DNA of 64,000 nt from an archaeon (GTDB taxonomy: Archaea; Micrarchaeota; Micrarchaeia; Norongarragalinales; UBA97). Shown piece by piece: positions 2,949 through 54,192 of this stretch. Made by a program: the position numbers and the translations under genes. How positions within the stretch are numbered: position 1 is the first letter of the stretch; every line of letters starts with the position of its first letter. The notes beneath the pieces are model-generated. The model was given only the letters and a program-made list of their open reading frames with translations. It was not told where the DNA came from and did no database searches. The stretch covers positions 13,111 to 77,110 of the forward strand of contig JAGVFW010000011.1 in assembly GCA_020057405.1 (NCBI GenBank), in the 5' to 3' direction.

Positions 2949-3626
2949 ATGCGGTTCTTCAAGTACGGCGAGAAAGGCAGTGAAATCCTGGCAATAGTGC
3001 TGCCTGGAAGCATCCAGCGAAGCTCAATGGTGAAGGAAGGCGACGAGTACGAGTTCATCGAATTGGCTCCGGGGGCTTTCTTCCTCGCAAGCAAGGCATA
3101 TCTCTCCGACGTGACTAGAAAAGACCTCGTCGCCAAGCTTGGAGCCAAGGTATTTGAATCAAGCGTCAAGCCCGCCGGGCAAACGACCGCGGCGCCCGTT
3201 TCGCAAACAGCCGTCCCGGCTCCAGTGGCCAAGGTAGAGTCTCCAAAACAGTGGGCGGCAGTCGGGGTACCGCAGTCGGCTTCAAAGAACTACTTTGAGG
3301 GCGAACTTGAAAAGCAGGGCTTTTTGGTCGTGGAAAACGAGGCCGAGGCCAAGGAACTCAGTAAAGCGCTCGAGGCCCGCATCAAGACGGGCGACGTCAA
3401 GGGCGTGCGCGGGTTTGACAAAAAGTTTTACATCGTCAGCCGCGAGTTCTACGAGTCGAATGTCGCAAAAGTGATGAACTCGCCGCCCAAGTCGGAATTC
3501 ACTGCCGCCGAAGTCACGGGCATCGTGAAAACTCCCGAACCCGGCGCCGCCGCACTATTGCAAGTGATGAAGGAAGAAGGCCAGTTGCTTGAGAAGCGCC
3601 GCGGCTACTACCAAATCATCAGGTAG
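2949..3626 (+). CDS. hypothetical protein (225 aa)
   Basis: Long ORF with coding-like composition and a plausible TTG/ATG context; no recognisable motif. Confidence 0.4.
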   Translation: MRFFKYGEKGSEILAIVLPGSIQRSSMVKEGDEYEFIELAPGAFFLASKAYLSDVTRKDLVAKLGAKVFESSVKPAGQTTAAPVSQTAVPAPVAKVESPKQWAAVGVPQSASKNYFEGELEKQGFLVVENEAEAKELSKALEARIKTGDVKGVRGFDKKFYIVSREFYESNVAKVMNSPPKSEFTAAEVTGIVKTPEPGAAALLQVMKEEGQLLEKRRGYYQIIR

Positions 3627-8401: not shown

Positions 8402-11332
8402 GTGGCTCCCTACCTTGACTCGGCCTCTCACGAGGGCTGGCACGAACCAGAACAAGCGCCCCTGCAGTTTCCCTCAGGCGAGCCGCCAAAACCAGTTACC
8501 CTCAAGAGCATAGGCTACGGCATCCTCGCACTCGCAATCCTGGCGGCGCTCCTGGCAATGCAGGCGCCCGAAGAGCCCAATGAGAAAACAACTTCCGGCA
8601 CGTCATCAAACCTGCTAAGCAAGCTCGGCTCGACAGTGACGCGCGTAGCCAACGCGATACTCGGCCTAGAGCCCAAAAAACTCGCTGCAACAGTAAACGA
8701 CACGAAGAACGCGATTTCAACTACGCCTGCTCCAACACCGGTAGCGACGAGCCCAACGCCTTCCCCCACGCCCGACCCCTGCGCTTGTCCTGGCATTTAC
8801 ACGCCGGTCTGCGGCTCTGACGGCAGGACTTACTTCAATGTTTGTGTTGCAACCTGCGAGGGGGTCTCAATTGCGCCTGCAGAGAACTGCGTGAACTCGA
8901 ATCTTCCCATAGTCACGCCCCGGCCAATGCCCTCGCCAGGCTCGCAAGGCAGTCCCACACCAACACCCTGTCCATCCTGCAGCCCAACTCCCACTCCAAC
9001 GCCGACGCCTTCGCCCACGCCAACACCCTGCCCATCCTGCAGCCCAACTCCCACTCCAACGCCTACCCCGTCACCGACTCCCACGCCTACTCCGTTTCCA
9101 GCGGACTTTTTCGTTGCGCCAACCGCTTGCAGCGACTCCAACCCGGGAACGCAAGCGCAGCCGTTCTGCACTATACAGAAGGCGCAAGCCGAAATCCGCA
9201 GCCTGATTGCGGGCGGCATGGCCAAGGACGCGATAGTGGCGCTGAGGGAAGGCGTTTATCGCATCAACTCGACCATTAACTTTGGCGCAAGCGATTCTGG
9301 CAAAAACGGCTTCAAGGTCAAGTACGTCGCGTACCCCGAGGAAACGCCGGTCCTTCGCGCCAGCCGCGACATCACGGGCTTCGCTCCAACAGGCCAACAA
9401 GGCGTTTTTTCGACCAACCTGCAAAGCGCGGGCTTATTCGACAACGGTTCGCTCGTGTTGTTCTACAACGGTCAGCTCCAGCAGCCGGCGCGGTACCCAA
9501 ATTACCGGGCCCCGGACTTTGGCGCGATAGACCCGTGGGCCGGAAACTTCCTGTACGCGACCGCGCCGAGCTTGACTGCGGACCTCAAGATTTACTACGA
9601 CACCACGAAGCTTGACGCCAGCGGCTGGACGACCGCCCCCGGGAGCCAGGTGGTGATTTTTACCGGCCCCAACTACGTCAACAGCTTTGGTGGAGTGGCA
9701 AGCATCAGCCAAAGCACTGGGACAATCAACATAGCGCGCATAAACAACCAAAACCAGTGGAGCTGGGACTCTGCGTGGCCCTATGACATCAGGGTCGGCA
9801 ACAGGTTCTACATCCAAAACGTTCGCGAGGCGCTTGACGCACCCGGCGAGTGGTACTACAACCCGCAGACGAAAGACCTCTTCTTCTATCCGCCCGCGCC
9901 AATGGGCCAAAACGACCGCGTTTCGCTCCCGGCGGCCTACGACATCATTCGCGTCGAAGGCGGCCAAAACATGGAGTTTAGCGGCCTCACCCTCGAGGAA
10001 GCGTCGGGAACAGGCTTTCTTTTGCACAACAGCAACAACATCGTGATTGCCAACAATGAAATCCGCAGCATAGTGATGAACGACAACAAGCACCCGGGAA
10101 CATGGGGACGCGTCTGGCCGTACGTCTCCTCGCGCGGCATTTACGCGTACGCCGAGGCGGCATCCGACCCGCAGTTCGAAAACATCGTGATAGAGAACAA
10201 CTCAATCCACGACATCGGCGGCGAGGGAATAAGCCTGGGGTCGGCCTCCACAACCCAGGCAAACCAAGACAGGTCAAACGAAGACTACCACTTCAAGAAC
10301 CTGGTTCCGCACAACCACCGCATAACATACAACAAAGTCTATGACACGGGCAAGGTCGCCGCCGGGACTACCGCAATCAAGTTCCGAGGCGTTGGCATTA
10401 CGGTATCGCACAACGAGGTCCACGACGTGCCCCGCATAGGCATCGGGTTCCAGGGAAACGATGACATAATCGAGTACAACCTGGTCTACAACGTGAACCG
10501 GCAGACGGAAGATTCCGGCGGCATCACGCACGGCTCGCGCGGCTGGACTTACCGCAACAACACCATCCGCAACAACTTCGTGCACGACACCGGCGGCTAC
10601 GCGTTCAACAACAGCGGCAGCGGCCTCTACGAGTTCAACAAGTTCAGTTGGGGAATTTACCCCGACGACTTTTCAAGCCAGTTTGAAATCCACGACAACG
10701 TTGTTGCCCGAGCTTCCAAGGGCATGGTGCAAATTCATTCGGGACGCGACAACTACATCCACGACAACATCGGCATTGAAGGCGCCTACAGCGGGCTCTA
10801 CGCGCAAGGCGAGTGGGGAAAGGCAGCCGACAACGCCTCCTTCCAAAACATGTGGAACGAGGTGCAGAACCTTGCCGGCTGGGGCTTCGACACGGCAAAA
10901 TACTATAGCAAGTACCCGCTGCTTGCCAACATACCCAATCCCGCAACCATGGCCGAGAACACGGTGTTCGACAACAACAAGTATGATCGCAACATCATCT
11001 ACTACCCGGGGCACGCGAGTGCTCCCGCTTACTGGGTGCGCCACATCATAGGCACTCCAAACACGGCATTCACCAAGAACCTACTTTGGAACGGCGGCGG
11101 CTCGATTTTCGTGCAGGAACCCGAAGCGGTATCCCACGGCGGCAGCTACACTTGGACCAATGGCGCCTACGTAGCCTTCTACAACTGGACGTACTGGAAG
11201 CAAATGGGCTACGACGCAGACTCACTAATCGCCGACCCGCTCTTCACCAACCCGGCTGCAGACGACTACACTCTCCAGCCGTCGTCGCCCGCCTGGGCAC
11301 TCGGCATGCACAACGTCATCGTGCCACGGTAA
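8402..11332 (+). CDS. membrane-anchored Kazal-domain protein with Pro/Thr linker and C-terminal right-handed beta-helix (pectate lyase/PbH1-like) domain
   Basis: GTG start supported by the paralog N-terminus (MAPY..HEGWH); TM helix; Kazal pattern [29 protein letters not shown]...ENC with six Cys; PTPTPSPTP linker with two CPSC motifs; repeated [13 protein letters not shown] / [20 protein letters not shown] beta-helix repeats. Confidence 0.75.
8961..9080 (+). repeat. 60-bp tandem duplication (x2) inside the Pro/Thr linker of the Kazal gene
   Basis: 8961-9000 and 9021-9060 are 39/40 identical, encoding [18 protein letters not shown] twice. Confidence 0.8.
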
Positions 11333-11358
11333 GTGTGAGAAAGCTTCACTGCAATCAG

Positions 11359-11367
11359 CTTTTATTT
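11359..11367 (+). promoter_or_regulatory. TATA-like box (CTTTTATTT) ~22 nt upstream of the ATG at 11385
   Basis: AT-rich box in an otherwise GC-rich context. Confidence 0.3.
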
Positions 11368-11384
11368 GCTAACGCAATTAGGGG

Positions 11385-11942
11385 ATGGCAATGGCTCCCT
11401 ATCACCTAGACGCCGACCAGCACGAGGGCTGGCACCAAGAAAGGCAGCCCGCGCCCCAGCTTCCTGAAGACCATGCGCCAGAGCCTTTCTCGCTCAAGCG
11501 GCTTGCGCTATCGGTGCTCGCAATAGCGATTGTCTCCGCCATGCTGATGGTGCAAGTGCCTTCCGACGCAGCCGAAGGTGCCACGCACTCAACCACCCTA
11601 GGCTCAAAGCTCGTCACCGCAGTCGGCGTCGTGGCGGATGCCATTCGCTCGTTTGCACCGAAGAACCTGTATGAAAAAGGCGGCGCAGAAGGCAACCTGC
11701 AGGGGACCGCCAATGCCTCGAATCAAACCGACCCCACGCCCATTCCGACCCCCGATTTTGGCGCGTGCGGCTGTGAGCGCGCGTACAAGCCAGTCTGCGG
11801 CCGCGACGGCATCACCTACAACAACACGTGCTTTGCCACGTGCGCGGGCGTCATCATCGCTGCTGCTGACGACTGCGTTACTGCAAAAACGGCTACTCCG
11901 AGGCCCGTCGTCGCGCCCTACGGCACGCCGGTGCCGAGCTGA
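11385..11942 (+). CDS. short membrane-anchored Kazal-domain protein (paralog lacking a C-terminal enzyme module)
   Basis: N-terminus MAMAPYHLDADQHEGWH parallels the 8402 protein; TM; Kazal CGCERAYKPVCGRDGITYNNTCFATCAGV...DDC. Confidence 0.7.
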   Translation: MAMAPYHLDADQHEGWHQERQPAPQLPEDHAPEPFSLKRLALSVLAIAIVSAMLMVQVPSDAAEGATHSTTLGSKLVTAVGVVADAIRSFAPKNLYEKGGAEGNLQGTANASNQTDPTPIPTPDFGACGCERAYKPVCGRDGITYNNTCFATCAGVIIAAADDCVTAKTATPRPVVAPYGTPVPS

Positions 11943-11953
11943 GTTGTGGAAAA

Positions 11954-12409
11954 ATGATTGTCGGAGTGGACGCGGGGCTGACAACGGCAATCGCGTTCGT
12001 GTCACTTGACGGCAAGCCCGTTTCCGCCAAAAGCGGCAAGCACTGGGGTTTTGAGGAGGCGATGCTTGCAGTTGCGCAAGGCGCCCCATCAGTTGAGATA
12101 GTGGCCTGCGATACCAATCCTTCGAGCCACTTTGCCAAGCAGCTGGCCTCGGCTTTTGGCGCTCGGGCTTACGTGCCCCGCCATTCGCTTCCGGTGATTG
12201 ATAAGGAGCGCATTGCGCAAAAAAGCGGGCTAAAGCTCAAGAACAAGCACGAGCGGGACGCCCTTGCCGCCGCTGTTTGCGCCTGGCGGCATTACCAGAA
12301 CAAGCTAAGGCAAGCCGGAACCAAGGCAGTCAAGGCTGGAAAGGCTGCTGGTGAAGTGCAAAAGCGCGTGCTTGCGGGAGAGAAGATGGCGTACTTGGTA
12401 CGAAAGTGA
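11954..12409 (+). CDS. RNase H-fold (YqgF/RuvC-like, DUF460-like) protein
   Basis: MIVGVDAGLTTAIAFVSLDG N-terminal motif typical of RuvC/YqgF-like resolvase folds. Confidence 0.4.
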   Translation: MIVGVDAGLTTAIAFVSLDGKPVSAKSGKHWGFEEAMLAVAQGAPSVEIVACDTNPSSHFAKQLASAFGARAYVPRHSLPVIDKERIAQKSGLKLKNKHERDALAAAVCAWRHYQNKLRQAGTKAVKAGKAAGEVQKRVLAGEKMAYLVRK

Positions 12410-12412
12410 GTC

Positions 12413-12787
12413 ATGCGTTTAAATAACTTGGGCAGAATAATCTGCTTTATGGAACCGACTAAGACTACCGCTCCAAGCGGCGATGCAAAACAATCCGCCA
12501 AGCCGGCACGGGCACCGTTTGAGGGAAACGTCATTTTTGTGGGAAAAAAGGAACCCATGAACTATGTACTGGCGCTAGTTGGCAGGTTTAACGCGGGGGC
12601 GGCGAGCGTGGAGCTAAAAGCCCGCGGCCGAACAATATCGAAAGCCGTTGACATTACACAAATCCTAAAGAACCGCTTTTTGTCCGACGTGCGCATTGCC
12701 GACGTCAAGCTATCGACAGAGGAAGTCGAGAACGAGGACGGCACGAAAAGCCGCGTAAGCAGCATGAGCGTAACGCTCTCCAGGTAA
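12413..12787 (+). CDS. albA: chromatin protein Alba
   Basis: [16 protein letters not shown]...[26 protein letters not shown] matches the Alba core; 30-aa N-terminal extension, start may be Met 12449. Confidence 0.8.
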
Positions 12788-12792
12788 ACTCC

Positions 12793-12798
12793 TTAAAT
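12793..12798 (+). promoter_or_regulatory. TATA-like box (TTAAAT) ~26 nt upstream of the GTG start at 12822
   Basis: Spacing consistent with a leaderless mRNA. Confidence 0.35.
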
Positions 12799-12821
12799 CC
12801 CGTCCCTGCGTAACGGTTTGC

Positions 12822-14642
12822 GTGAACGAACAGTCACTCGAGGCACAGTCAGAAGAAAAGAAGGGGATGGAGGGATTCGGCCTCGTCACCCTCCTGCTCG
12901 CCATCGGCATGCTGCTGCTCTACTTTAGCGCGGGGGGCGGCGACTCCAAGCAATTTCTCGAAAAAGCATCAAACTCCATCCAAAACCTGACTCAAACAAT
13001 CAGGGAAACGGGAAACGAGCCAACTCCGCAACCAACCCCGGCGGAGATTGGCTCAACGGCAACTCCGACGCCAGAGGCCGAAGGCGAGTTTGCGCAATGC
13101 GGGTGCCCCAAAACCTATTCACCCGTATGCGGTTCCGACGGCAACACCTACTACAATGGCTGCATGGCAAGATGTCGCGGAAAAGAAATCGCGAACGCCG
13201 AAAACTGCGTAAAACCGTGGATAACGCCAGTACCAACGCCCAACCCAAGCTCGACGCCTACACCAACTCCGCTGCCAAGCACGACCCCCACGCCCAACCC
13301 CTCGCCAACAATTAGCCCCACGCCAAGCCCAACTCCCACCCCGACGCCAAGCCCAACGCCCTCACCGACTCCCACGCCAACCGCGAGCCCAACGCCACAA
13401 GCGGACTTCACTTTCGGCTGGTACACGATGGTCGAAACCGGATCCTTTGCCAACCTCAGTGCAATAGCCAGTGCCGGCGGATCGAACACGGTAATTGCCT
13501 ACTCGTGGCCAGCCGAATGCGGCGGCTGGGGACCCACGGTGAACCACTCTTGCTGGAGAAACTACCTTGATGCCGCACAAGCCCGCGGAATCAAAGTATG
13601 GGCTGAAGTTCCAAGAAACCTGGTCAATGCCCAAAACTTCACGGGATTGAGGCAATTTGCCCAAGGCCTCAGGGGCCACCCGGCACTCGCGGCGTACTAC
13701 CTTTCCGACGAGCCCGACCAGGCGTTCTGGCAAAACGACCCTAGGTTCAGCCCACAAAACATGACACTCGCATACCAAGTGCTAAAACAAGAAGACCCCC
13801 AAACGCTAGTAACCCACGTGGTTGTGCAAGTGGGCTTTGGCGTTTACCCGCAACTCGACTGCAGCGCGTACGGCGACCCAAGCAAGCACCACCTAGGGTG
13901 CCACAAGCCCTACGGACAAAACACGGCCATCTACAACGCTAGCACTTGCGGGGAACGCGATTTGTGCAACCTCGCCTACTACGAACCGTCCGCCGACATC
14001 CTCTCTACCGACTACTACCCGTTCGAGTATGGACTCGAAGGCCAAACCATCAAGAACGTGACAGTCTACCCCTACTGGCCCTTCGACCGCACCAAAAAAT
14101 GGAGCGAATACGCCAAAGCCCGGGGCAAAAACTACGTAGCGATAGTGCAAGGAACCTACTGGCTCGACCGGCTTATTTCGATGACGCCCGAACAACTGGA
14201 ATTGCATCCCACAAAACAAGAATACCGCTTCTACTCAATAGGCAACATGCTGGAGGGGGCAACCGGCATCATCGCATTCGTTGCCTACCGCTCTTCCCAA
14301 AATGTTAGGAACAACATCATCGCACCCGCCTACAGCGACATACAATCGTACAAAAAACTATTTTATGACGGCATCGCGGCGTCATGTGTTCCGGCCCAGG
14401 AATGCGCGGAAGTAATAGCAAAAACCACTCAAGACGGAACCGACGGAACACTTATTGGTGCGCTTAACGCCAATTTCACAACTCAGCGAACCATCACGCT
14501 TGCCCTGCCCGCCCCGGTCACCTCGGTCAAGCTCTTTGAAAACGGCGTCCTGCAAGACTACCCCGGCCTAATCAGCATAAACGGAAACGCCATTACAATC
14601 CGGTTAGAACCCCAGCAAGCAGTACTGCTAAAAGCAAGCTGA
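12822..14642 (+). CDS. membrane-anchored Kazal-domain protein with Pro/Thr linker and glycosidase-like TIM-barrel domain (family unassigned)
   Basis: GTG start; N-terminal 75 aa ~85% identical to the 14863 paralog; Kazal [29 protein letters not shown]...ENC; long PTPSPTP linker; C-terminal domain with YYLSDEPD (acid/base-like) motif. Confidence 0.7.
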
Positions 14643-14727
14643 AAAGAAAAACGCGAATAACTCGTTTCATCACCAAACAATTATCAGCACTAGGAAGATG
14701 CACTAAACGCGCAGACCGTACCCTATT

Positions 14728-14739
14728 CCCCCCCCCCCC
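14728..14739 (+). repeat. C12 homopolymer tract
   Basis: Twelve consecutive C between Kazal paralogs 3 and 4. Confidence 0.9.
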
Positions 14740-14834
14740 GACCGAATCGGCCAACACGTACTCAGCGCCAACCGAACTCGCACTCGATGTGCCCGACAAG
14801 ACACTCGCACTCAGGTTGACACCCGGTTAGCGAA

Positions 14835-14840
14835 TTAAAA
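14835..14840 (+). promoter_or_regulatory. TATA-like box (TTAAAA) ~26 nt upstream of the GTG start at 14863
   Basis: Same spacing as the paralog promoter at 12793. Confidence 0.35.
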
Positions 14841-14862
14841 GCGCAACTCGCGTTACGATAGC

Positions 14863-17229
14863 GTGGACGAACAGGCACTCGAGGCACAGGCTGATGAGAA
14901 GAAGGGAATGGAGGGATTCGGCCTCGTCACCCTCCTACTCGCCATCGGAATGCTCATGCTCTACTTCAGCGCGGGGGGCGGCGACTCCAAGCAAATGCTC
15001 CAAAACGCATCAAACACCGTCCAAGACATAACCCAAACAATCAAAGAAACGAGCAACGAGCCGACGCCGGAGCCAAGCGAACCCACGCCAGAACCATCTA
15101 CTGAAACGCCCACGCCGCCTCCTGGGGAAGAGCAAAACGAGTTTACACAATGCGGATGCCCCGAACTCTATTCTCCAGTGTGCGGAGAGGATGAAATAAC
15201 ATACTACAACGCGTGCATGGCACGCTGCCGCGGGCGAAGCATAGTCGACGGCCAATACTGCGACCCGAACAACTGGCCAACTCCCCGGCCAACACCGACG
15301 CCAACCGTAACGCCCAAACCAAGCCCCACGCCAACCCCTTGCCCAAGCTGCGCAACGCCGACCCCTACACCCACGCCAAGCCCAACTCCCAGCCCTGGCC
15401 CCACTCCAATGCCAACCCCGCCACTCGATTATTCGGGCTACTGGAGTTTCGACAACTACAGCTCCACAACGGTCTTTGATGCGTCACCAAACCACTTTGA
15501 CGCAGCCTATACCGCAGGCGACTCGAGCCAAAACAGCGTCAACGGTGCTTTTGGAAAATCACTCAAGACCACCCAAACGAACTACGCCCGCGCGGCAGGA
15601 GACGCCCTCACCGACGGCCCGTTCACCGTAACCAGCTGGTTCAAGCACGACGCCGAACTCGTCTCCGACCAACCAACTCCCTGGGTAGGCGGCTTGGGCA
15701 AGGCCTACCGCATGCGCTTGGGCTGGATGGGCGGCGGCACGGACTTTTACCAAGGTGGCTGGATGTGCAAAATCAATTCCGGCAACGCGCCAAGCGTCTA
15801 TCAAGTTTATCCAGTCAAGGCAGGCGTTTGGTACAATGTCGCATGCACTTGGGACGGCAGCTCGATTAAACTCTATGTCAACGGCTCGCTAGTGCGAAGC
15901 GACAGCTACGCTAGCCAAAGCTATGTTGGCAGCGAACAGTTTGACTTTGGACGCTCAAGCGACACTTACTGGGTCGGCAGCATTGACGAAGTGAGAGTGT
16001 ATCGGCGAGCACTTTCCGAAAGCGAACTCTTGACAATGTCGCCCGACTGGGCCAAGAAGCGCCAGACTGAAACACCCAAATCCACCTACTCCTTCACTGA
16101 CTCGATTGGAGTAAACATGCACGACTGGCCTAACTATGAGTCGGCAATCGCCCCCCGCGTGCGCGAACTGGGCGTCAAGCACCTGCGCGACAACCTGTGG
16201 TTCATCAACAAGAGCGCCTGGACCCAAACTAAGATGCGCCAACACATTGGGGACGGCGTAAAATACGCCTTGATTCCCGACCAATTCATGCTCAACGCCA
16301 CCGACGTCGTGCCCTATCTCAAGTTCCTCTACGGCAACCTCTCAGGGCAGTACGGTAATTCATTCATCGACGTAGTCGAAGGGCCAAACGAGCCCGACAA
16401 CTTCTACGACAACGTTCCGAACATCCTGCAAAAAACATTCGACTACCACACTTCGATGTACGCCGCTATCAAGGCCGACTCACAAACGCAGGCAATCAAA
16501 GTCGCCGCGCCGTCACTCACACTAAGCCACGACCGAAGCGCCTTCGACGACTACAACTACGCACCCATTGCCGACTACGCAAACGGACATTTCTACCAGG
16601 AACCCCTAAATCCCGGCTACCCACTCATCGACAAGAGCGAATACTACGTCAAGGGCGAAGCGCCCGGCCTACCCGTGCTTGTGACAGAAGCAGGCTACAC
16701 TACCTACTCCGGCGGCTTTAGCGAAACATTACAGTCGAAATACCTCGTGCGCACGCTCCTCGAATACTTCAACCGCGGCTACCCCCGCACCTACCTCTAC
16801 GACTTTGCAAACGACGGCCCATCAGGCGACGACCAGTACCACTCGCGCTTCGGGCTAGTAACCTGGGACGCGGTGCCAAAACCCTCATTCTACGCAATCA
16901 AGAACCTCATCACCATCCTCTCCGACACTAGCACGCCAATAACGCCACACGCTCTTGACTATGAACTCGAGACAACTAGTGCCGACCTTCATCACCTGCT
17001 CTTGCAGAAGACAAACGGCGACTGGTACCTCGTGTTGTGGCTCGAACGCAAGAGCACCGACACCGACGTCACTGCACAAGTGACAATCCGCACCTACACT
17101 CCGGTGACGCAAGCGCAGTTATTCGAGCCCCACGTCTCGGCAAGCGCAACGCAAACTTTCGCCAACCCCGCAGTAATTACGCTAAACGTGCCGGACAAGG
17201 CAGTGATTGTCAAGCTCACTCCCGCTTAA
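14863..17229 (+). CDS. membrane-anchored Kazal-domain protein with Pro/Thr linker, LamG/ConA-like lectin domain and clan GH-A glycoside hydrolase domain
   Basis: Kazal [29 protein letters not shown]; PCPSC-containing PT linker; LamG signature [22 protein letters not shown]; GH-A acid/base [10 protein letters not shown] and nucleophile [10 protein letters not shown]. Confidence 0.75.
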
Positions 17230-17946: not shown

Positions 17947-18936
17947 TTAAAGCGTGGTGACGGGGCGCGCCTGCACTATGTAGAAGACACCTGACTCGAG
18001 GGCCCACTCAAGGTCTTGGGGCGAACCGTAGTGCACCTCGATGCGGTTGCACAGCCGCGAAAGCTCAAGTACCTTGAGGCCGGAGAGCTTCTGCTTGGCG
18101 CGCTTGTCTGCAGGCACTGGCAGGTGTTGCGTGCCGCCAGTAGGCCCGCGGACAATCATTTCCTCCTGTTCATTCACCTGCACGTCGAGAAGCATTTCCT
18201 CAGCCTTGTCGACAACGTACTTGTCTGGAGTAATCAGCCCGCCCACTATTGCCTCGCCAAGACCGAAGCCCGCCTCGATTACCATCTGGTTGCGGTCGCG
18301 AGTGACGGGATTGACGGTGAAGGCAACGCCGCTCACCTCGCTCTCGACCATCTTTTGCACGACAACACCCACGCCCACTTGCGCCTTCTCCAGGCCCTGC
18401 TCAAAGCGGTAGAAAATCGCGCGGGGAGTGAAGAGCGATGCCCAGCACTTTCGCACGGTTGGCAAAAGCGTCTCGCCAGTCGTATTGAGGTAGCTTTCTA
18501 ACTCTCCGGCCCAACTCGCTGCCGAAGCATCCTCGGCGGTTGCACTCGAGCGTACTGCGACAAAACGCGCGCCGAGAGTATTGAATTGCGCAGTTATGGC
18601 ACTGGCCATGTCTTGAGGAATATCTGCCGACTCAATCAACGAACGGATATTCTTGCTTGCCGCGTCAACGCTCGACGTGTTGTGCTGGTCCACTTTAGCC
18701 AATTCAATGGCAATCTTTCCCCCAAGCCCGTTAACGCGGATGAATTCATCAAATGAAGCAACAGAAACGACAAAACCTGGCGGGACAGGAATGCCGGCCG
18801 CAGTCATTTCACCAAGCTGCGCACCCTTGCCCCCAGCAATTGCAACGCTGGCCTTCGAAAGAGAAGCAAAAGGCAAGACAAACTTTTCCATAAACCTAAC
18901 CCCAAACTCTATCGTAATTGTGGCCTGCTGCGACAA
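17947..18936 (-). CDS. stand-alone PEP/pyruvate-binding ATP-grasp domain protein (PPDK_N; PEP synthase / rifampin phosphotransferase-like)
   Basis: VAIAGGKGAQLGEM...PVPPGFVV...WASLFTPRAIFYR...GVAFTVNP match the PPDK N-terminal nucleotide-binding domain; ORF stops after this domain. Confidence 0.75.
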   Translation of the reverse strand: MSQQATITIEFGVRFMEKFVLPFASLSKASVAIAGGKGAQLGEMTAAGIPVPPGFVVSVASFDEFIRVNGLGGKIAIELAKVDQHNTSSVDAASKNIRSLIESADIPQDMASAITAQFNTLGARFVAVRSSATAEDASAASWAGELESYLNTTGETLLPTVRKCWASLFTPRAIFYRFEQGLEKAQVGVGVVVQKMVESEVSGVAFTVNPVTRDRNQMVIEAGFGLGEAIVGGLITPDKYVVDKAEEMLLDVQVNEQEEMIVRGPTGGTQHLPVPADKRAKQKLSGLKVLELSRLCNRIEVHYGSPQDLEWALESGVFYIVQARPVTTL

Positions 18937-19030
18937 CGGGCTTTTCCTCCCGCGGCACGCCCTGCCACACCTGCATGAGAAATATGATGACGAGCAGCGT
19001 GAAGATGATGTCGCTCTCGCTCATGTTTCT

Positions 19031-20584
19031 CTACCCCTCTAGCTTCCTTACGATACCCTTGACCGCGTCAACCTCGACCAAGTCACCGTCCTTGAGCACT
19101 TTCGTCGCAATTTTCGTGCCAATGACGCAAGGCACGCCAAGCTCGCGGCTCACTATCGCCGCGTGCGAAGTGACTCCACCCTGCTCGGTGACGATTGCGC
19201 CTGCCTTCTTCATCGCAGGAACGACGTCAGGATTCGTTGCAATTGCGACTAGGATGTCTCCCTGCTGCATCTTCGGCAGGTCGGCTGGTGACAAGACGAT
19301 TTTCACTCTGCCGGTTGCCTTCCCTAGGCAGGCGCACTGGCCGTGAAGCTCGCTGATGTTACCGTCAACCTGGACAACTGCGGTTGAGGCAAGAAGCGCC
19401 GCGTCGTCGCCAGTGACTAGCATGTCACGGCCTTTCTCCGAGTAGAGGACAAACTCGCTGCGCGAGCTTAGTTTCTCCAAGTCGAAGCTGCCTGTAAGCA
19501 GCGCCTCGTACTCTTTCGGCAGCATCGTTCGGGCTTGGTCTAGCGTGATGCCCTTGCGCTTGGCGATTTCCTTGAAAACCGCACGCAGGCGGTAGACTGC
19601 ACGCAATTGCCGGTAGCGGCGGTAGAGTTTCGTGAGCATGAACTGGCCGAAAACGTGGAAGAGCCGCTTGAACTTGCCGTCCATTCCAATTTTTGCCTCG
19701 AGGTCTGCCTTCTCAAGCGCCTTGACTTTCAGGTCGTTCTCGATGCCCTCAAGCTCCTCAGAGGGCGACTTGCCGGACTTGAGGTAGTCGGAGAGCTCGC
19801 CAATGTAGTGCCTAACTGGTGCCTTTTCGCCTACCCAGAGGGCCGAGATTGGCGAATACTCGCCGTAGTAGGCAAGCAACATGTCCCCGGCCTTGCCGCG
19901 CATCTCCGCCTCGATCACGTCGGCCGGCTGGTGAAGGAACAACTGCTTGTGGAAAGCGTTGTTCTCGATCTCAATTGCAATTGAGAGGAACCGCTCGTGC
20001 TGTTCCGCTTCCTCGCTGCGGTCGGAGGGGGTGGTCAATGCAACGAAAAGCGTGTTGACCTCGTCCTCGCCATTTGCTTTTGTGCGCAGGTAGCGCTTGA
20101 GAAGTTCAGTAAACTCAGGGTAGAACATGTCGGTCGCGTTTGGCAGCCAGCCCCACTCGTAGAGCGAGGAATGCACTTCCAAGTGGTCCTTGAGAAGGAG
20201 CCACAGCTGGGCGTCGGAGAGCGGCTTGAGGTCGGCAGGAATTTTCTTGCCGCTTGCCTCAAGGGCATCCGAGTGCCGCACGATCTCGGAGTTTATTTTC
20301 TCGCCGTAGCCGGGGTCGGCGTCCATCTTGTTGACTAAGTTTAGCGTGAAGTCAAGGCAGCTTTGCTTGCCGTAGTAGAAGCTCATGTCACGGCCCTTGA
20401 AGTGGCCGAGGATTTTGCTGTAGTTTCTCCCGCAGCTGTCCTCCATGTTGTTGACAAAAGCGCGGAGCCAGATTTGGCAGAAGAAAAAGTCAATGTTGGG
20501 AATGTCTTCAGCAACCATCCACTCGTCGCCGTCAGCCAAGCACTTGAGCCCGTTCTCTTTCGAGAGTTGTTCGATTCGTTCCAT
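19031..20584 (-). CDS. PEP-utilising enzyme mobile (His-swivel) domain protein with ~400-aa unassigned N-terminal domain
   Basis: C-terminal GGVTSHAAIVSRELGVPCVIGT is the phospho-His swivel signature; N-terminal region has no motif I recognise. Confidence 0.7.
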   Translation of the reverse strand: MERIEQLSKENGLKCLADGDEWMVAEDIPNIDFFFCQIWLRAFVNNMEDSCGRNYSKILGHFKGRDMSFYYGKQSCLDFTLNLVNKMDADPGYGEKINSEIVRHSDALEASGKKIPADLKPLSDAQLWLLLKDHLEVHSSLYEWGWLPNATDMFYPEFTELLKRYLRTKANGEDEVNTLFVALTTPSDRSEEAEQHERFLSIAIEIENNAFHKQLFLHQPADVIEAEMRGKAGDMLLAYYGEYSPISALWVGEKAPVRHYIGELSDYLKSGKSPSEELEGIENDLKVKALEKADLEAKIGMDGKFKRLFHVFGQFMLTKLYRRYRQLRAVYRLRAVFKEIAKRKGITLDQARTMLPKEYEALLTGSFDLEKLSSRSEFVLYSEKGRDMLVTGDDAALLASTAVVQVDGNISELHGQCACLGKATGRVKIVLSPADLPKMQQGDILVAIATNPDVVPAMKKAGAIVTEQGGVTSHAAIVSRELGVPCVIGTKIATKVLKDGDLVEVDAVKGIVRKLEG

Positions 20585-21399: not shown

Positions 21400-21515
21400 A
21401 GAAAACTAGTGGGAAAGGCGGAATAAAAAACGCGCTTTTGGTGCAGCTTTTGAGGAGCGAGAAGCGAGCCGCCCAACGGAGGGCGGGAGCCTCGCAGCGA
21501 CGAAAAAAGGTGCAG

Positions 21516-21620
21516 TGGGCCCAGCCGGAATCGGACCGGCGATCTTTCGCACGTCAAGCGAACGTCCTTGGCCAACAGTATACCAAAGTATGCTGTCGTT
21601 TACCATTCGACTATGGGCCC
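21516..21620 (-). tRNA. tRNA-Val(GAC) with a ~31-nt intron at the non-canonical 25/26 position
   Basis: Perfect 7-bp acceptor GGGCCCA/TGGGCCC, D-arm GTCG-AATGGTAAA-CGAC, then a 31-nt insert (hairpin CAGCATAC-TTTG-GTATACTG), then G26, anticodon arm TTCGC-TTGACGT-GCGAA, variable loop AGATC, T-arm GCCGG-TCCGATT-CCGGC, discriminator A; 74 nt without the insert. Confidence 0.5.
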
Positions 21621-21653
21621 AAATGGATGATACTATAATGTTGCGAATGGTTT

Positions 21654-22325
21654 TTATTTCGCTAATATTGACATCCGACCTGACTCTACCCAAGCCTCGT
21701 AGCGTGAAATGTTGCGCGGATTGCTGCTTCCAACGAAGGAAAACCAGTTTTTGGTGTTCGCAATGCCGTTGACGCCGACAATGTGACCTGATTCGTAGGC
21801 CGAAAAACCCGCTTCGCGCAAGATTGCCTTAATTTGGAGTCGAAGAGGCTCGCTGGAACTGCTGATTATCGCAAACGGCCGACGATAGCCCTCTGACTTT
21901 CTAGCGGCAAAGCACCCATCAGTGTCAAAAATTCCCCTAACGACACGCAGCTTCTTTACAAGCTGCAGAGCTACAATCCAGTCAGGCAGACGGATTTGGC
22001 CCTTCTTGCCTATTGGAAAGCCTACTTTCACGAGAATCAAGGCGAATTCCTTGTTGTTTATGACAAGGTCAACGGTATTGACGTTCTTGACATTAGTAGG
22101 TTTGCGCAAGTGAAGGTACGAATTGACGCCCAACTCAGTCAACAAAGGCTGCAAATAATTTTTAAAATATTGAAGGTCAGTCGTTGCGTTTCCGGTGATG
22201 AAGATGCGGTAGGCAACTAAACCGCCCGCGTCCTTTCTCTTAAAACGAACTAAGCAGCCGTCGCCAACAAGAGCGCCAAATAGCTCTAGAAAAGAATGAG
22301 ACTCAAGGTCAAAAAGCGGCTTCAT
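21654..22325 (-). CDS. free-standing LAGLIDADG homing endonuclease (double-motif)
   Basis: Two dodecapeptide motifs, LELFGALVGDGCL and VVRGIFDTDGCF, ~100 aa apart; own start and stop; not embedded in a host ORF. Confidence 0.75.
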   Translation of the reverse strand: MKPLFDLESHSFLELFGALVGDGCLVRFKRKDAGGLVAYRIFITGNATTDLQYFKNYLQPLLTELGVNSYLHLRKPTNVKNVNTVDLVINNKEFALILVKVGFPIGKKGQIRLPDWIVALQLVKKLRVVRGIFDTDGCFAARKSEGYRRPFAIISSSSEPLRLQIKAILREAGFSAYESGHIVGVNGIANTKNWFSFVGSSNPRNISRYEAWVESGRMSILAK

Positions 22326-23189: not shown

Positions 23190-23261
23190 TGGACTGGACG
23201 GGAATCGAACCCGCAACCTCATGCATGCCATGCATGCGATCTACCGTTGATCTACCAGCCC
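23190..23261 (-). tRNA. tRNA-Ala(GGC)
   Basis: Cloverleaf: acceptor GGGCTGG/CCAGTCC with the G3:U70 Ala identity pair, D-arm GATC-AACGGTA-GATC, anticodon arm CATGC-ATGGCAT-GCATG, T-arm GCGGG-TTCGATT-CCCGT, discriminator A, genomic CC follows; TTTAAA box ~30 nt upstream. Confidence 0.85.
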
Positions 23262-33948: not shown

Positions 33949-34144
33949 GTGCCCGAGAGGACACGCGAGCCACCTGCCAAATTAGGTTAGGAACTGGTGA
34001 GTTGAATGAATTTCGTTAGTGCGTCAAAAAAAGAAAAAGTGCTCGAAAGGACGAGAGAGTCACCCACCAAATACAATTGGGGAGAACTCGAATATATTTC
34101 TTGTGCCGGTGTGCTCGAGAGGGTAAGAGGGTCACCCACCAAGT
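33949..34144 (+). repeat. three degenerate direct copies of a ~34-nt motif (GTGCYCGARAGG...GAG.CACCYRCCAARY), periods 90 and 72 nt
   Basis: Copies at 33949-33982, 34039-34072 and 34111-34144, ~75-80% pairwise identity; the third lies inside the tRNA-like gene. Confidence 0.6.
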
Positions 34145-34189
34145 GACTGCGCGCAGGCGCAGTGTGGGGTTCAAATCCCCACCGCCGGC
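34105..34189 (+). ncRNA. aberrant type-II tRNA-like gene (long variable arm; anticodon loop CCACCAA), possibly a pseudo-tRNA
   Basis: Acceptor GCCGGTG/CGCCGGC, U8, D-arm, stem-loop GTCAC-CCACCAA-GTGAC, 17-nt variable arm (TGCGC-GCAG-GCGCA), T-arm TGGGG-TTCAAAT-CCCCA; but one extra nt lies between the T-stem and acceptor, and the loop has C33/A34. Confidence 0.35.
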
Positions 34190-34222
34190 AAACGACCCTC
34201 AAGTAAACCAGAGGTGGTTGAC

Positions 34223-41057: not shown

Positions 41058-41133
41058 GGCAAGCCACTTCCGATAATTCCTTATGGTTAAAAGCAGCACT
41101 TGATTTAAACAGTTTCCGTAAGGTGTGGTTTCA

Positions 41134-44100
41134 ATGGAAGTAGCGCAACAGAGGCTTATTAGCAGCGAGCTGGTGCTGCGGTTCGACAAGTTTTTCTCGC
41201 AGGAGAGCCAAAAGCGGCGGCTTGAAATCGTTGCCTCAAAGTACCCGCAGGTAAAGAGCGCCGATGTCGACCTTGACGACGTCTACAAGTTTGACCACGA
41301 CTTGGCGGACGAAATCCTTGAGCAGCCTGACGTTTACCGCGAGGCCGCGGAAGAGGCGGTGCGCAGGATGGGCGTGGCGTCAGTGCAGGAAAACGAGTTT
41401 TCGCCCCACGTGCGCTTCTTCAACACGCCTGACGTGCCAAAATTCCGGCCCATGGTGCTTGAGCTCGGCGCAGACCACCTAAACCGCCTTATTTCGATTG
41501 ATGGCACGGTCAGCTCAATTGGCGACATCAAGCCGCACTTGAAGCGGGCGGTGTGGCGCTGCAAGTTCTGCGAAGCCACTACCGAAACTTTTCCCGACAA
41601 GACTGAACCGGTCCAGCCGCCGTTCTTTTGCGAGAGCTGCACGCGCAAGGACGGGAAGGCCAACTTCGAGCTTGACGAGAAGGCAAGCTGGCTTGTCAAC
41701 AAGCAGCGGTCTGAAATCCAGGACGCAGTCGAGCGCCTGCGCGGCAACGTCCCGGCAGTGCACGTCGAACTGTGGCTTGAGGACGACCTCACCAACAGGA
41801 TTGCGCCAGGCGATAAAGTCATCCTTAGCGGCATCCTGAGGCTAAAGCCCCTGACGCAAGGCCGCGGGAAGAGCAGCGTTTACGGCAAGTTTTTCGAAGT
41901 CATGCACGTTCACGAGCGTGAACTTGAATTCGAGGAAATCGAGATTACAAGAGAGGATGAGGTCGAAATCCTCAAGCTTGGCCGGGACCCCAAGCTGTTT
42001 GAGAAAATCGTCGCGAGCATCGCACCCAGCCTCTACGGTTACACTGAACTAAAGCAGTCGATTGCGCTGCAGCTATTCGGAGGCACGCCCGGAAAAGTGC
42101 TTCCTGACGGGGAGCGCATCCGAAGTGATATGCATATTTTAATGATCGGTGATCCGGGTTGTCTCGTGGCCGATGAGCGGGTTGCACTAGGAAACGGCGC
42201 AATCGCTAAGATGGGAGAGCTTGGAACCAAACACTTGCAGGAAATAAACGTGTCCGTGCTTACTGGCGAGGGGGGAAGGAAACGGGATGTCGCAACCGTC
42301 TTCCACAAGTACCCTAACCAGCCGGTCATGGAAGTAATTACAGAAAGCGGCAAAAGCATCAGGGGAACTCACAACCACCCGCTATTGTGCGTAGAAGGCG
42401 ATTACGGAAGGATACAAAGAAATTGGAAGCGCCTTGATGAACTCAAAGTCGGGGACAAACTGGCGGCAGTAACGTCAATCCCCTGTACGATTACCGCACC
42501 GGTCGCTACCGGATTCAAGCCTCTAGCCTACAAGGGGGGACCCAAGTTCAGCGGAAAGCTGCCGGCCCGCTTCACGCCCGACCTGGCCGCACTGTCGGGC
42601 TATTTCCTTGGCGACGGCTGGGCAACTGAAACTGAAGTCGGATTCGTAGTGGCCGAACCGGAGAAAGACATCATACCCGAGCTTGAGCGCAAGTGCGTAA
42701 AGCTTTTTGGCATTAGTCCCAAGAAAGTGTCGCACAAGCTCGCTAAAGGCAGAACGGTTCCACTCCACTACTTCGGGCTATACTCGAAAGATATTGCGAA
42801 TAACTTAAAGTTCCTTCGGGAAAAGCGCGTGCCGGCACTGGTCCTCGCGTCGGGAAATAGGGTATTGGCGGAATTCCTAAAATGGCTCTTTGAAGCTGAC
42901 GGCACGGTCTTCGACAAGGGCAGGGGCAGGCGGGTCGTCGGGCTAAAGGCCAAGAATATCGAACTATTGCGGGACGTTCAGATGCTCCTACTTAGGTTTG
43001 CAATCCACTCGCGAATCGACGGCAACGCGCTTTTGATACGCCGGGGGAATGACATCATTAAGTTTACAAAGAAAATCGGCTTCGCATCGCAAAAGAAGAG
43101 GAAAAAACTCGAAAGCCTCGCCGCCAAAGCCAAAGGATTCGCGAGGACAAAGGGGCAGCGGGTTGAAAAAATCGTCAAAATCATCCGACACCCCCCCGAA
43201 GACGTCTTCGACGTCGAAGTGCCAAAGGGCCACCGCTTCATCGCAAACGGCATTATCTCCCACAATACGGGCAAGTCAACTATGCTTGAGTACGTTTCCA
43301 ACATTGCGCCCAAGAGCGTTGTTGTTAGCGGTGGCAGCTCGACTGGCGTCGGCCTCACGGCTGCTGCTGAAAAAGAGGAGGGCGGCGAGGGTTGGGTGCT
43401 TAAGGCGGGCGCCATGGTGCTCGCGAATGGCGGAATTGTCGCAATTGACGAGCTTGACAAGATGAATGAAAACGACAGGGGCGCAATGCACCAGGCGATG
43501 GAGCAGCAGTACATCAGCATTGCAAAGGCAGGCATTGTCACTGAATTCCAGACCAAGACTGCAGTCTTGGCGGCTGCAAACCCAAAGCTCGGCAGGTTTG
43601 ACCCCAACACGCCCCCCGCGCAGCAATTCAACATTTCTCCGGCCCTGCTCTCGCGTTTCGACCTGATTTTCACCATGCGCGACGTGCTTGACGAAAGCCG
43701 GGACAAGGCAATGGCGAGCCACATTCTCGAGGGCCACAGGATTGCGGCCTCGAAGGAAGCCCCGCCGAAGTCAAGCATCACCGTCCCGCTAATTGAGCAG
43801 ACTATTTTGCGAAAGTACATCGCTTACGCAAGGCGCCACTCAGCTCCAAAGCTCACGAAGGAAGCCTCGGAGAAAATCAGGGACTACTACGTGCAAATGC
43901 GCCGCATTGGACAGGAGCAGAATACTTTCCCGATCACTGCGCGGCAAATTGAGGGCCTCATCCGCCTCTCGGAAGCTAGCGCGAAAATGCGTTTGTCGGC
44001 AACAGTTGACTTGCAGGACGCCCAGCGCGCGGTTGACTTGCAGAACTACGTGCTTAACGAAGTCTTCATCGACAGGGAGACCGGCAAGCTCGACAGCGAC

Positions 44101-44337
44101 GTCGTCAATCTCGGACAGTCGAAGAACCGGCTTGACCGCGTGCGGACCGTGCTTAACATCATCCGCGACATCGAACGCGAGTACGACCTCGCTCCCATCG
44201 ACGATGTCGTGAAGGAAGCGCGCAACTACAACATCGACGAGTTCTACGCAAGGAACCTCATCGACGAGCTACTCCGCAAGGGCGAGCTCTACGGCCCCAA
44301 GGCGGGGTATGTGAAGAGCGCACGGCAAAGGGAATAG
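41134..44337 (+). CDS. mcm: MCM replicative helicase containing an intein in the Walker A loop
   Basis: Zn-finger CKFCE...CESC, Walker A GDPG-[intein]-TGKST, Walker B IDELDKM, Arg finger SRFDL; alternative GTG start at 41125; 701 aa after intein removal. Confidence 0.9.
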   Translation: MEVAQQRLISSELVLRFDKFFSQESQKRRLEIVASKYPQVKSADVDLDDVYKFDHDLADEILEQPDVYREAAEEAVRRMGVASVQENEFSPHVRFFNTPDVPKFRPMVLELGADHLNRLISIDGTVSSIGDIKPHLKRAVWRCKFCEATTETFPDKTEPVQPPFFCESCTRKDGKANFELDEKASWLVNKQRSEIQDAVERLRGNVPAVHVELWLEDDLTNRIAPGDKVILSGILRLKPLTQGRGKSSVYGKFFEVMHVHERELEFEEIEITREDEVEILKLGRDPKLFEKIVASIAPSLYGYTELKQSIALQLFGGTPGKVLPDGERIRSDMHILMIGDPGCLVADERVALGNGAIAKMGELGTKHLQEINVSVLTGEGGRKRDVATVFHKYPNQPVMEVITESGKSIRGTHNHPLLCVEGDYGRIQRNWKRLDELKVGDKLAAVTSIPCTITAPVATGFKPLAYKGGPKFSGKLPARFTPDLAALSGYFLGDGWATETEVGFVVAEPEKDIIPELERKCVKLFGISPKKVSHKLAKGRTVPLHYFGLYSKDIANNLKFLREKRVPALVLASGNRVLAEFLKWLFEADGTVFDKGRGRRVVGLKAKNIELLRDVQMLLLRFAIHSRIDGNALLIRRGNDIIKFTKKIGFASQKKRKKLESLAAKAKGFARTKGQRVEKIVKIIRHPPEDVFDVEVPKGHRFIANGIISHNTGKSTMLEYVSNIAPKSVVVSGGSSTGVGLTAAAEKEEGGEGWVLKAGAMVLANGGIVAIDELDKMNENDRGAMHQAMEQQYISIAKAGIVTEFQTKTAVLAAANPKLGRFDPNTPPAQQFNISPALLSRFDLIFTMRDVLDESRDKAMASHILEGHRIAASKEAPPKSSITVPLIEQTILRKYIAYARRHSAPKLTKEASEKIRDYYVQMRRIGQEQNTFPITARQIEGLIRLSEASAKMRLSATVDLQDAQRAVDLQNYVLNEVFIDRETGKLDSDVVNLGQSKNRLDRVRTVLNIIRDIEREYDLAPIDDVVKEARNYNIDEFYARNLIDELLRKGELYGPKAGYVKSARQRE
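42160..43266 (+). mobile_element. MCM P-loop intein (~369 aa) with LAGLIDADG homing-endonuclease domain
   Basis: Begins Cys after GDPG, ends His-Asn before Thr(+1); internal LSGYFLGDGWA and LKWLFEADGTV dodecapeptide motifs; boundaries +/-2 nt. Confidence 0.8.
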
Positions 44338-53989: not shown

Positions 53990-54062
53990 GCCTCGGTAGC
54001 TCAGCTGGTAGAGCGCCTGGCTGTTAACCAGGATGTCGCAGGTTCGAGTCCTGCCCGGGGCG
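53990..54062 (+). tRNA. tRNA-Asn(GTT)
   Basis: 73-nt cloverleaf: acceptor GCCTCGG/CCGGGGC, D-arm GCTC-AGCTGGTAGA-GCGC, anticodon arm CCTGG-CTGTTAA-CCAGG, T-arm GCAGG-TTCGAGT-CCTGC; TATAATT box ~31 nt upstream. Confidence 0.9.
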
Positions 54063-54192
54063 CTTCTTCTCGAAGTATTAGCGCCGGTTTGAAGTGTTCT
54101 TTGGGCCGGCAAGTCACGGCCGCGAGCATGATTTGGGGGCGGTGGGACAGTATGCGTTATTTTGGCAAAACTTCTGGGGACGCACTGGCTAG

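Follow-up and report, generated by a model that had tools for sequence, protein, structure and literature searches.

A tRNA-Val(GAC) gene of a DPANN archaeon with a very probable 33-nt intron at position 22/23 of the D arm

The tRNA-Val(GAC) locus

The 64-kb stretch of DNA analyzed here (the window) carries on its minus strand, at 21516–21620, a complete precursor tRNA-Val(GAC) gene of 105 nt, as judged from its sequence, from a covariance-model match and from the score of its orthologue. Read from 21620 to 21516, the locus is GGGCCCATAGTCGAATGGTAAACGACAGCATACTTTGGTATACTGTTGGCCAAGGACGTTCGCTTGACGTGCGAAAGATCGCCGGTCCGATTCCGGCTGGGCCCA; all of its parts and signals described below lie on the same strand, and CCA is not encoded within 21516–21620. 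The 5′ exon (21600–21620; 21 nt, GGGCCCATAGTCGAATGGTAA) comprises the 5′ strand of the acceptor stem, U8, A9, the 5′ strand of the D-stem, the D-loop and A22. [quoted passage not shown] Between the exons lies an insertion of 33 nt (ACGACAGCATACTTTGGTATACTGTTGGCCAAG; 21567–21599) at Sprinzl position 22/23, delimited by the alignment of intronless relatives, by the differences to the orthologue and by the cutting rule for bulge-helix-bulge (BHB) motifs. The acceptor stem has 7 bp, and the anticodon GAC (21553–21555), specific for valine, is evident both from the sequence and from the Rfam alignment of the anticodon arm.

The analyses below make it very likely that the locus encodes a functional tRNA-Val(GAC) from a DPANN archaeon, probably of the Micrarchaeota, and that the gene is interrupted by a 33-nt intron at 22/23, in the 3′ strand of the D-stem. 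A sequence-only reading had proposed an archaeal tRNA-Val(GAC) with a non-canonical BHB-type intron in the D-arm region, which homologues and the fold of the precursor support. Likewise, the roughly 30 extra D-arm bases that it saw as a hairpin are there, as are the anticodon loop TTGACGT and, in the T-loop TCCGATT, a C in place of U55 (21534). It had placed the intron differently, however, and this placement is revised in the following.

Intronless relatives define the junction

Relatives were collected by a metagenome scan with the 5′ half of the gene (GGGYYCNTAGTCGAATGGTAA), a pattern that fixes the sequence only as far as GGTAA and that returned at least 121 matches at 120 or more loci. 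Among the matches listed, 83 of 121 are intronless tRNAs of 72 nt. The 47 distinct intronless relatives among the matches listed are uniform in the region of interest: every one contains GTCGAATGGTAAGAC, every one has the junction GTCGAATGGTAA/GAC, and every one has the D arm GTCG-AATGGTA-AGAC. The same D arm, with a G13·A22 mismatch and a 7-nt loop, is found in the relative L008, an intronless tRNA-Val(CAC).

When the intronless tRNA-Val(GAC) genes L086, L069 and L009 were aligned with the window gene using MAFFT, their gap fell exactly at GGTAA/33 nt/GACG, beginning just 3′ of the 5′ exon; this exon has the identical sequence in the orthologue L089/L095. We further built a covariance model (R1) from the 47 distinct intronless relatives only and used it, with filters switched off, to search the entire window. 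It matched 21612–21524 (44.0 bits, E = 1.6e-10) and placed 34 nt opposite a single model position, between GGUA and GACG. The same search found no second tRNA-Val within the 64-kb window. In Sprinzl numbering, GGUAA corresponds to G18, G19, U20, A21 and A22, and GAC to G23, A24 and C25; the intron therefore sits at 22/23. Its removal leaves a 72-nt tRNA with the D arm of all 47 distinct intronless relatives (among the matches listed), and the predicted spliced product is thus 72 nt long with the junction ...AAUGGUAA/GACGUUCGC....

Intron-bearing relatives

Three intron-bearing sequences, the window gene included, allow the intron itself to be compared. The locus L089 and the window are collinear across ~14 kb with 73–82% DNA identity, which makes L089 a true orthologue from a different species. 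In this orthologue (L089/L095), the exons are identical to those of the window at 72 of 72 positions, while the intron, equal in length at 33 nt, differs at 10 of 33 bases (Fisher p = 3.2e-6). A third locus, L049, is syntenic with the window, in that a tRNA-Ala and the next gene come after the tRNA-Val in both, and it carries an unrelated intron of 38 nt at the identical 22/23 junction.

The neighboring introns are less constant. The tRNA-Val of L049 has an additional intron near 45/46, and its tRNA-Ala has one at 37/38, where the tRNA-Ala of the window has none. The related contigs also have tRNA introns in the T-loop, at 37/38 and near 29/30 and 45/46, as would be expected for an intron-rich lineage. 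Because L049 has these extra introns and the window does not, tRNA introns appear to be gained and lost within the clade while the 22/23 intron of tRNA-Val(GAC) is kept: it persists across at least three diverged lineages as its neighbors come and go. At one further locus, L093, we found only a 22-nt 5′ piece of a tRNA with a hairpin after it; as no 3′ half lies within the locus, we discarded it as a candidate for a split or long-intron gene.

Standard tRNA finders

ARAGORN makes no call at the locus, and the Rfam tRNA model (RF00005), run over the whole window at its gathering score, misses it. On short stretches (up to 125 nt), the Rfam model reaches 22.1 bits against a threshold of 29 bits and covers only the 3′ 58 nt, mistaking a GGCCA within the insertion for an acceptor strand. 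By comparison, the same model gives 50.9 bits over the full length of the L095 orthologue, whose exons are identical and whose intron is equally long, and 65–67 bits for the intronless tRNA-Val(GAC) genes L086 and L069. The shortfall at the window locus looks like an alignment or banding artifact, with GGCCA in the intron as a decoy. ARAGORN does call a tRNA once bases are excised, but when all excisions of 12–49 nt were tried it did so for hundreds of variants, and it therefore cannot discriminate between splice solutions. A scan of a genome collection with an anticodon-loop/T-loop pattern yielded three bacterial chance matches only.

These results bear on annotation: default ARAGORN and Rfam runs miss the gene, and without the intron call the genome would appear to lack a tRNA reading GUC and GUU. 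They also bear on how boundaries are called, since the prettiest cloverleaf is here the wrong splice solution, and homologues together with the cutting rule give the right one.

Rfam, run over the whole window at E ≤ 1, returned nothing new. Matches to its 'Plastid-ycf2' model were rejected as antisense-tRNA look-alikes, as this model also matches the antisense strand of a tRNA-Asn. Group I and group II introns have a ribozyme core of hundreds of bases and, in bacteria and organelles, usually lie at 37/38. With an insertion of 33 nt and no match to the Rfam models of either group at the locus even at E ≤ 10, a self-splicing intron was rejected as well.

Fold of the precursor

According to the BHB rule, the splicing endonuclease of archaea cleaves after the second base of each 3-nt unpaired stretch that flanks a 4-bp helix. 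The precursors of the window, L089 and L049 share one minimum-free-energy (MFE) architecture, with −46.3 kcal/mol (z = −3.9) for that of the window, in which such a motif can be recognized. Its central helix H pairs the exon strand UGGU (U16, G18, G19 and U20; 21602–21605) with the intron strand GCCA (21569–21572), and these 4 bp are invariant in all three intron-bearing sequences. On the 5′ side, helix H is followed by the splice-site bulge AA/A (21599–21601), with the predicted cut after its second base, A22; a 3-nt AAN bulge between H and the intron helix h′ is found in three of three precursor folds. Helix h′ itself (21573–21598) consists of 6 bp, a C·A mismatch and 4 bp, and is closed by a UUUG loop. 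The hairpin that the sequence-only reading had seen in the insert exists, but it corresponds to the inner part of this helix.

The 3′ splice site, AG/G (21566–21568), was placed by the folds and by a BHB scan, again with the predicted cut after the second base. It lies within a 3×2 internal loop, in which the final two bases of the intron face G13, A14 and A15, and not in a clean bulge; the D-stem pairs G10-C25, U11-A24 and C12-G23 are formed in the precursor folds. The strict hBHBh′ motif is consequently absent, the outer helix h having 0 contiguous pairs at the 3′ site. With an internal loop at the 3′ site and no contiguous outer helix, the motif has to be classified as relaxed (HBh′), and a relaxed motif (HBh′/BHL-like) is indeed present at both predicted cut sites. 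Folding of the precursor thus yields a BHB, as had been suggested, in its relaxed form and at the corrected 22/23 sites.

By the BHB rule, the precursor would be cut after bases 21 and 54, which coincides with the junction defined by the homologues; the same agreement holds in L089 and L049. In a systematic BHB scan, the cut pair 21/54 has four of four central pairs and, in the window, the longest h′, and no other intron-sized solution within the D-arm insertion is shared by the three sequences. With three distinct sequences only, both sides have changed in 6 of 11 pairs of h′, where 87.9% of cells are paired; over the whole structure, these three sequences have 97.4% of cells paired, compared with 84.4% after shuffling and 35–49% with slid partners. 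On these three distinct sequences, compensating changes keep the motif while the intron sequence drifts. As stand-alone statistical evidence, the motif was rejected, because 93% of shuffled sequences contain at least one BHB-like motif of equal looseness. Its weight comes instead from its exact match with the homologue-defined junction and from its conservation.

Expression signals and a proposed splicing pathway

Upstream of the gene, an alignment with the orthologue reveals a block (TTAGCGAAATAAAAACCATTCGCA; 21642–21665, −45 to −22) that is identical at 24 of 24 positions, while the spacer around it differs. Within the block, a TATA-like element (AAATAAAAA; 21651–21659) is preceded by a purine-rich stretch. 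By analogy with archaeal promoter architecture, the block is probably a BRE/TATA promoter with a leader of ~8–10 nt. A TTTTTT run 8–13 nt beyond the 3′ end (21503–21508) is a probable oligo-T terminator, and the orthologue has a T run in the same place.

In the pathway that we propose, the gene would be transcribed from its own BRE/TATA-like promoter, with transcription ending at the oligo-T run. In the precursor, the 3′ part of the intron (GCCA) would pair with U16, G18, G19 and U20 to form the 4-bp central helix of the relaxed BHB. The 5′ cut site would be presented in the 3-nt bulge (A21 A22/A) between this helix and the covarying intron hairpin, and the 3′ cut site (A G/G23) in the small internal loop closed by G10-C25, U11-A24 and C12-G23. 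The splicing endonuclease would cut two bases into each unpaired stretch, an RtcB-type ligase would join the exons, and the outcome would be a 72-nt tRNA with the D arm GUCG-AAUGGUA-AGAC, to which CCA would then be added. The sequence comparisons and folds establish the gene, its junction and the conserved fold; cleavage, ligation and CCA addition, as well as the type of endonuclease, we infer.

A relaxed motif needs a broad-specificity endonuclease, as the sequence-only reading had anticipated. Since there is no outer helix at the 3′ site, the strict-motif α4 and α′2 enzymes should not cut it (PMC3239211, PMC5829648). Only the (αβ)2 and ε2 endonucleases are reported to cut relaxed substrates (PMC5829648). 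We would accordingly expect a broad-specificity enzyme such as ε2 in this organism. A tRNA-intron endonuclease domain (tRNA_int_endo) was not found by Pfam among 38 ORFs scanned from the window.

Alternative readings

The sequence-only reading had placed a 31-nt intron (AGCATAC...AAGGAC or one of three equivalent registers) between the D-stem and position 26, leaving a 74-nt product with a 4-bp D-stem (GUCG/CGAC), a 9-nt D-loop and the junction ...GGUAAACGAC/GUUCGC.... This solution is appealing in that the MFE structure of the 74-mer is indeed a cloverleaf (−33 kcal/mol), as claimed, and in that 25/26, too, has been published as a non-canonical site (PMC4090602). We nevertheless consider it highly improbable. 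Its D arm, GTCG-AATGGTAAA-CGAC, occurs without an insertion in 0 of 121 relatives among the matches listed, as opposed to the uniform GTCG-AATGGTA-AGAC of the distinct intronless ones, and it cannot exist in L049, which reads TGGGC after GGTAA and hence has no CGAC strand. No BHB can be drawn around the 31-nt splice sites either, as the four registers give 0, 0, 1 and 0 of 4 central-helix pairs. Lastly, 1 of the 10 differences between the window and L089 would land in an otherwise invariant exon, at position 25. The resemblance arises because the start of the intron, ACGAC, mimics the 3′ strand of the D-stem; the intron has 33 nt and lies at 22/23, and the predicted product has 72 nt, not 74.

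The preferred reading, a spliced 33-nt intron, also has to be weighed against two readings in which no splicing takes place. The gene could be dead, a tRNA-Val inactivated by the insertion that is neither spliced nor used any more; this would agree with the failure of the standard finders (ARAGORN and Rfam) and with the negative search for the endonuclease among 38 window ORFs. A dead gene would, however, hardly retain 72 of 72 exon positions next to genes that are only 73–82% identical, nor a conserved promoter-like block, nor an insertion in which 10 of 33 positions have diverged, with changes that compensate one another. Given also that a third lineage (L049) has an intron at the same junction with the motif intact and that the window has no other tRNA-Val, we regard inactivation as very unlikely. 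The mature RNA, an unspliced, expanded tRNA or a tRNA-like RNA, could instead retain the insertion as an additional arm of the D domain; the stability and conservation of the insertion's hairpin might speak for this. Yet the insertion sequesters G18 and G19, whose elbow contact with the T-loop is, to our knowledge, needed by every tRNA; its ends match the endonuclease cutting rule to the base; and 83 of 121 relatives among the matches listed do without it. With a lineage, moreover, that is known to splice such insertions (PMC3239211), retention appears extremely unlikely.

Relation to described introns

The phenomenon is already known, and so is the lineage for such introns: 22/23 has been listed among the non-canonical sites, together with 20/21, 25/26, 29/30 and others (PMC4090602), D-arm introns are a recognized class (PMC12397907), and the relatives are rich in introns. 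The closest described system is that of ARMAN-2 (Candidatus Micrarchaeum acidiphilum; Fujishima et al. 2011, PMC3239211), with which the window organism likely shares its phylum-level lineage. In this member of the Micrarchaeota, 56% of tRNA genes are disrupted, and its ε2 endonuclease cuts relaxed motifs in vitro (PMC3239211). Both systems have short introns at sites other than 37/38, whose relaxed motif presents one cut site in a clean bulge and the other in a loop, and disrupted tRNA genes are abundant in both genomes. The introns described from ARMAN-2, however, are at 59/60, 53/54 (in the T-loop) and 37/38, whereas that of the window is in the D arm at 22/23, and its central helix, in a further difference from them, uses G18 and G19 of the D-loop. 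The window organism is also not ARMAN-2 itself, having 55% G+C and relatives from groundwater and sediment metagenomes.

As summarized in PMC4090602, the crenarchaeal 22/23 introns of Thermoproteales (Sugahara et al. 2008) are inserted at the same point, follow the same splicing logic and have relaxed HBh′/hBH motifs. They belong to another lineage with an (αβ)2 endonuclease, and the likeness is one of the summarized description, with no implication of common descent. With canonical 37/38 introns of the strict hBHBh′ type, the window intron shares the 4-bp central helix, the geometry of the 3-nt bulge and the cutting rule; it differs from them in position and in lacking an outer helix at the 3′ site. 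The 22/23 site, so far summarized mainly from Crenarchaeota, is thereby extended to DPANN relatives from groundwater and sediment.

Position 55

Pseudouridine 55 is the partner of G18 in the tRNA elbow. U55 is described as conserved and its pseudouridine as universal (PMC7912444), which makes C55 the less ordinary point of this gene. Among the matches listed, 13 of the 47 distinct intronless relatives carry C55 (10 tRNA-Val(CAC) and 3 tRNA-Val(GAC)). In the tRNAs called by ARAGORN on the fetched contigs, C55 is present in 17 of 55 distinct tRNA-Val, in 1 tRNA-His and in 0 of 21 others. Within the window, both of the remaining standard tRNAs carry U55. Moreover, three pairs of genes differ at base 55 only (L097/L055, L027/L094 and L015/L039). 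From these counts and pairs, C55 is a recurrent, tolerated state of the tRNA-Val family, neither an error nor peculiar to the window gene; between roughly a quarter and a third of the clade's tRNA-Val genes carry it. This suggests that the need for pseudouridine 55 may be relaxed in the tRNA-Val of this clade.

Gene neighborhood

A free-standing gene for a double-motif LAGLIDADG endonuclease lies directly 5′ of the tRNA-Val(GAC) gene, and homologues lie directly 5′ of related tRNA genes, or overlap them, in three other contigs. A comparison of the protein with PDB sequences returned no match.

One may ask whether the D-arm intron owes its retention to interrupting a recognition sequence used by mobile elements that attack this tRNA family. 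The intron would then provide 'immunity' to the tRNA gene. This would be an archaeal parallel to collaborative intron/endonuclease homing, and a direct case for the idea, reportedly put forward by Randau and Söll, that disruption of tRNA genes protects against integration. We give this very little credence: the orthologue L089/L095 has the intron and no LAGLIDADG gene, and the tRNAs adjacent to LAGLIDADG genes in the other contigs have no 22/23 intron.

Elsewhere in the window, at 34105–34190, there is an odd tRNA with a long ('variable') arm. A search with a second model (R2) found no further copies of it in 532 kb of fetched loci, and PRTase-based synteny of its region to more distant relatives was not found.

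The overall gene content of the window is archaeal, with aIF5A, an archaeal-type ProRS, a RIO1 kinase and a KH protein, and its proteins are not acidic, so that a haloarchaeal origin can be dismissed. In the relatives L004–L007, identified at 91% identity through a 517-aa PEP-utilizing protein, no tRNA adjoins the gene for this protein. The closest named homologues of the protein are from Candidatus Micrarchaeota archaeon and Norongarragalinales (53–63% identity), and proteins from groundwater metagenomes reach 70–91%. It is on the names of these homologues, as given by the sequence sources, that the probable assignment to the Micrarchaeota (DPANN) is based. By eye, the translations of the window also include putative topoisomerase VI subunits, an SMC protein and an MCM with an intein.

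Further introns in the tRNA-Val family

In L049, the more distant of the syntenic lineages, the tRNA-Val(GAC) gene (1189–1334, −) carries a second intron of ~35 nt near position 45/46, and the adjoining tRNA-Ala(GGC) gene (1930–2021, −) has an intron of ~19 nt at 37/38, which is missing from the tRNA-Ala gene of the window (23190–23261). These differences between L049 and the window indicate that intron gain and loss are both active in their clade. Elsewhere in the tRNA-Val family, the introns among the metagenome matches listed range from 22 to >80 nt and occupy several canonical and non-canonical positions: near 29/30 in L029, L030, L078, L091, L092 and L109, in the T-loop in L045, and at 37/38 in L011, L025, L035, L104, L125, L012, L017, L103 and others.

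On a G+C-rich contig of 265 kb (L093), the family is represented by a 5' fragment of 22 nt, GGGCTCATAGTCGAATGGTAAG (3179–3200, +), after which comes a long hairpin with perfect pairing; no 3' tRNA half was found within the locus. This fragment could be the remnant of an integration site.

Two sub-threshold matches to the Rfam family Plastid-ycf2 (RF04354; 28 and 24.8 bits), at 21515–21620 (+) and 53990–54063 (−) of the window, both fall on the antisense strand of tRNA genes; we regard them as artefacts of a model that evidently resembles antisense tRNA.

A LAGLIDADG gene beside tRNA-Val

The tRNA-Val gene of the window is preceded by a gene for a LAGLIDADG_3 protein of 223 residues (21654–22325, −; Pfam domain), the 3' end of which lies 34 nt 5' of the tRNA gene and overlaps the TATA-like block of the latter. 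Because two motifs, LFGALVGDG and RGIFDTDG, can be discerned by eye, the protein looks like a homing endonuclease of the monomeric type; a PDB sequence search with it returned no match. Homologs with 40% and 27% identity are found immediately 5' of related tRNA genes on three other contigs (L031, 45–674, −; L108, 852–1490, +; L084, 3353–3955, −), and in L031 and L108 the stop codon of the reading frame even coincides with tRNA positions 8–10. The syntenic relative L089/L095 does not possess the gene. Overall, it has the appearance of a free-standing endonuclease gene that settles beside tRNA genes.

A tRNA-like gene with a long variable arm

An odd tRNA-like gene of 86 nt lies at 34105–34190 (+); the Rfam tRNA model scores it at 38.2 bits when a short stretch is searched, but does not detect it at whole-window scale. 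It features a long variable arm with a 5-bp stem, an A at position 73 and an apparent 6-bp T stem, resulting in a 13-bp acceptor/T helix. Its syntenic ortholog (L130, 1325–1410, −, corresponding to L129, 2562–2647, −) has the same shape: in its acceptor, anticodon, variable and T stems, base changes are compensated on the opposite strand, whereas its anticodon loop reads CUGUCGA (GUC, Asp) instead of CCACCAA (C33, 'ACC'). Conservation thus extends to the structure but not to the anticodon. Allo-tRNAs and tRNA-Sec-like tRNAs (PMC5389517, PMC7609411) are the closest known molecules, but the 7/6 acceptor/T arrangement is absent among the types described there. No extra copies were found with model R2 in 532 kb of related loci.

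Protein genes elsewhere in the window

The members of a series of large, secreted-looking paralogs (8402–17229, +, also 11385–11942) resemble one another at the N terminus and have in common a Kazal-type domain and long linkers rich in Pro, Thr and Ser, and one of them has a Laminin_G_3 domain; a location on the surface of the DPANN cell is probable for these proteins. At 17947–20584 (−), split genes encode proteins with a PEP-utilizing 'swivel' domain and, separately, a PPDK_N protein, interleaved with HTH_10/BAT regulators, as in the relatives L004–L007, which have two or three PEP-utilizer copies in the same cluster. Finally, on inspection by eye, the translation of a 1070-aa reading frame (41125–44337, +) resembles an MCM helicase with an intein bearing a LAGLIDADG-type insert, the P-loop (GDPG...TGKST) being interrupted by a segment that extends from C...VADER to ...SHN.
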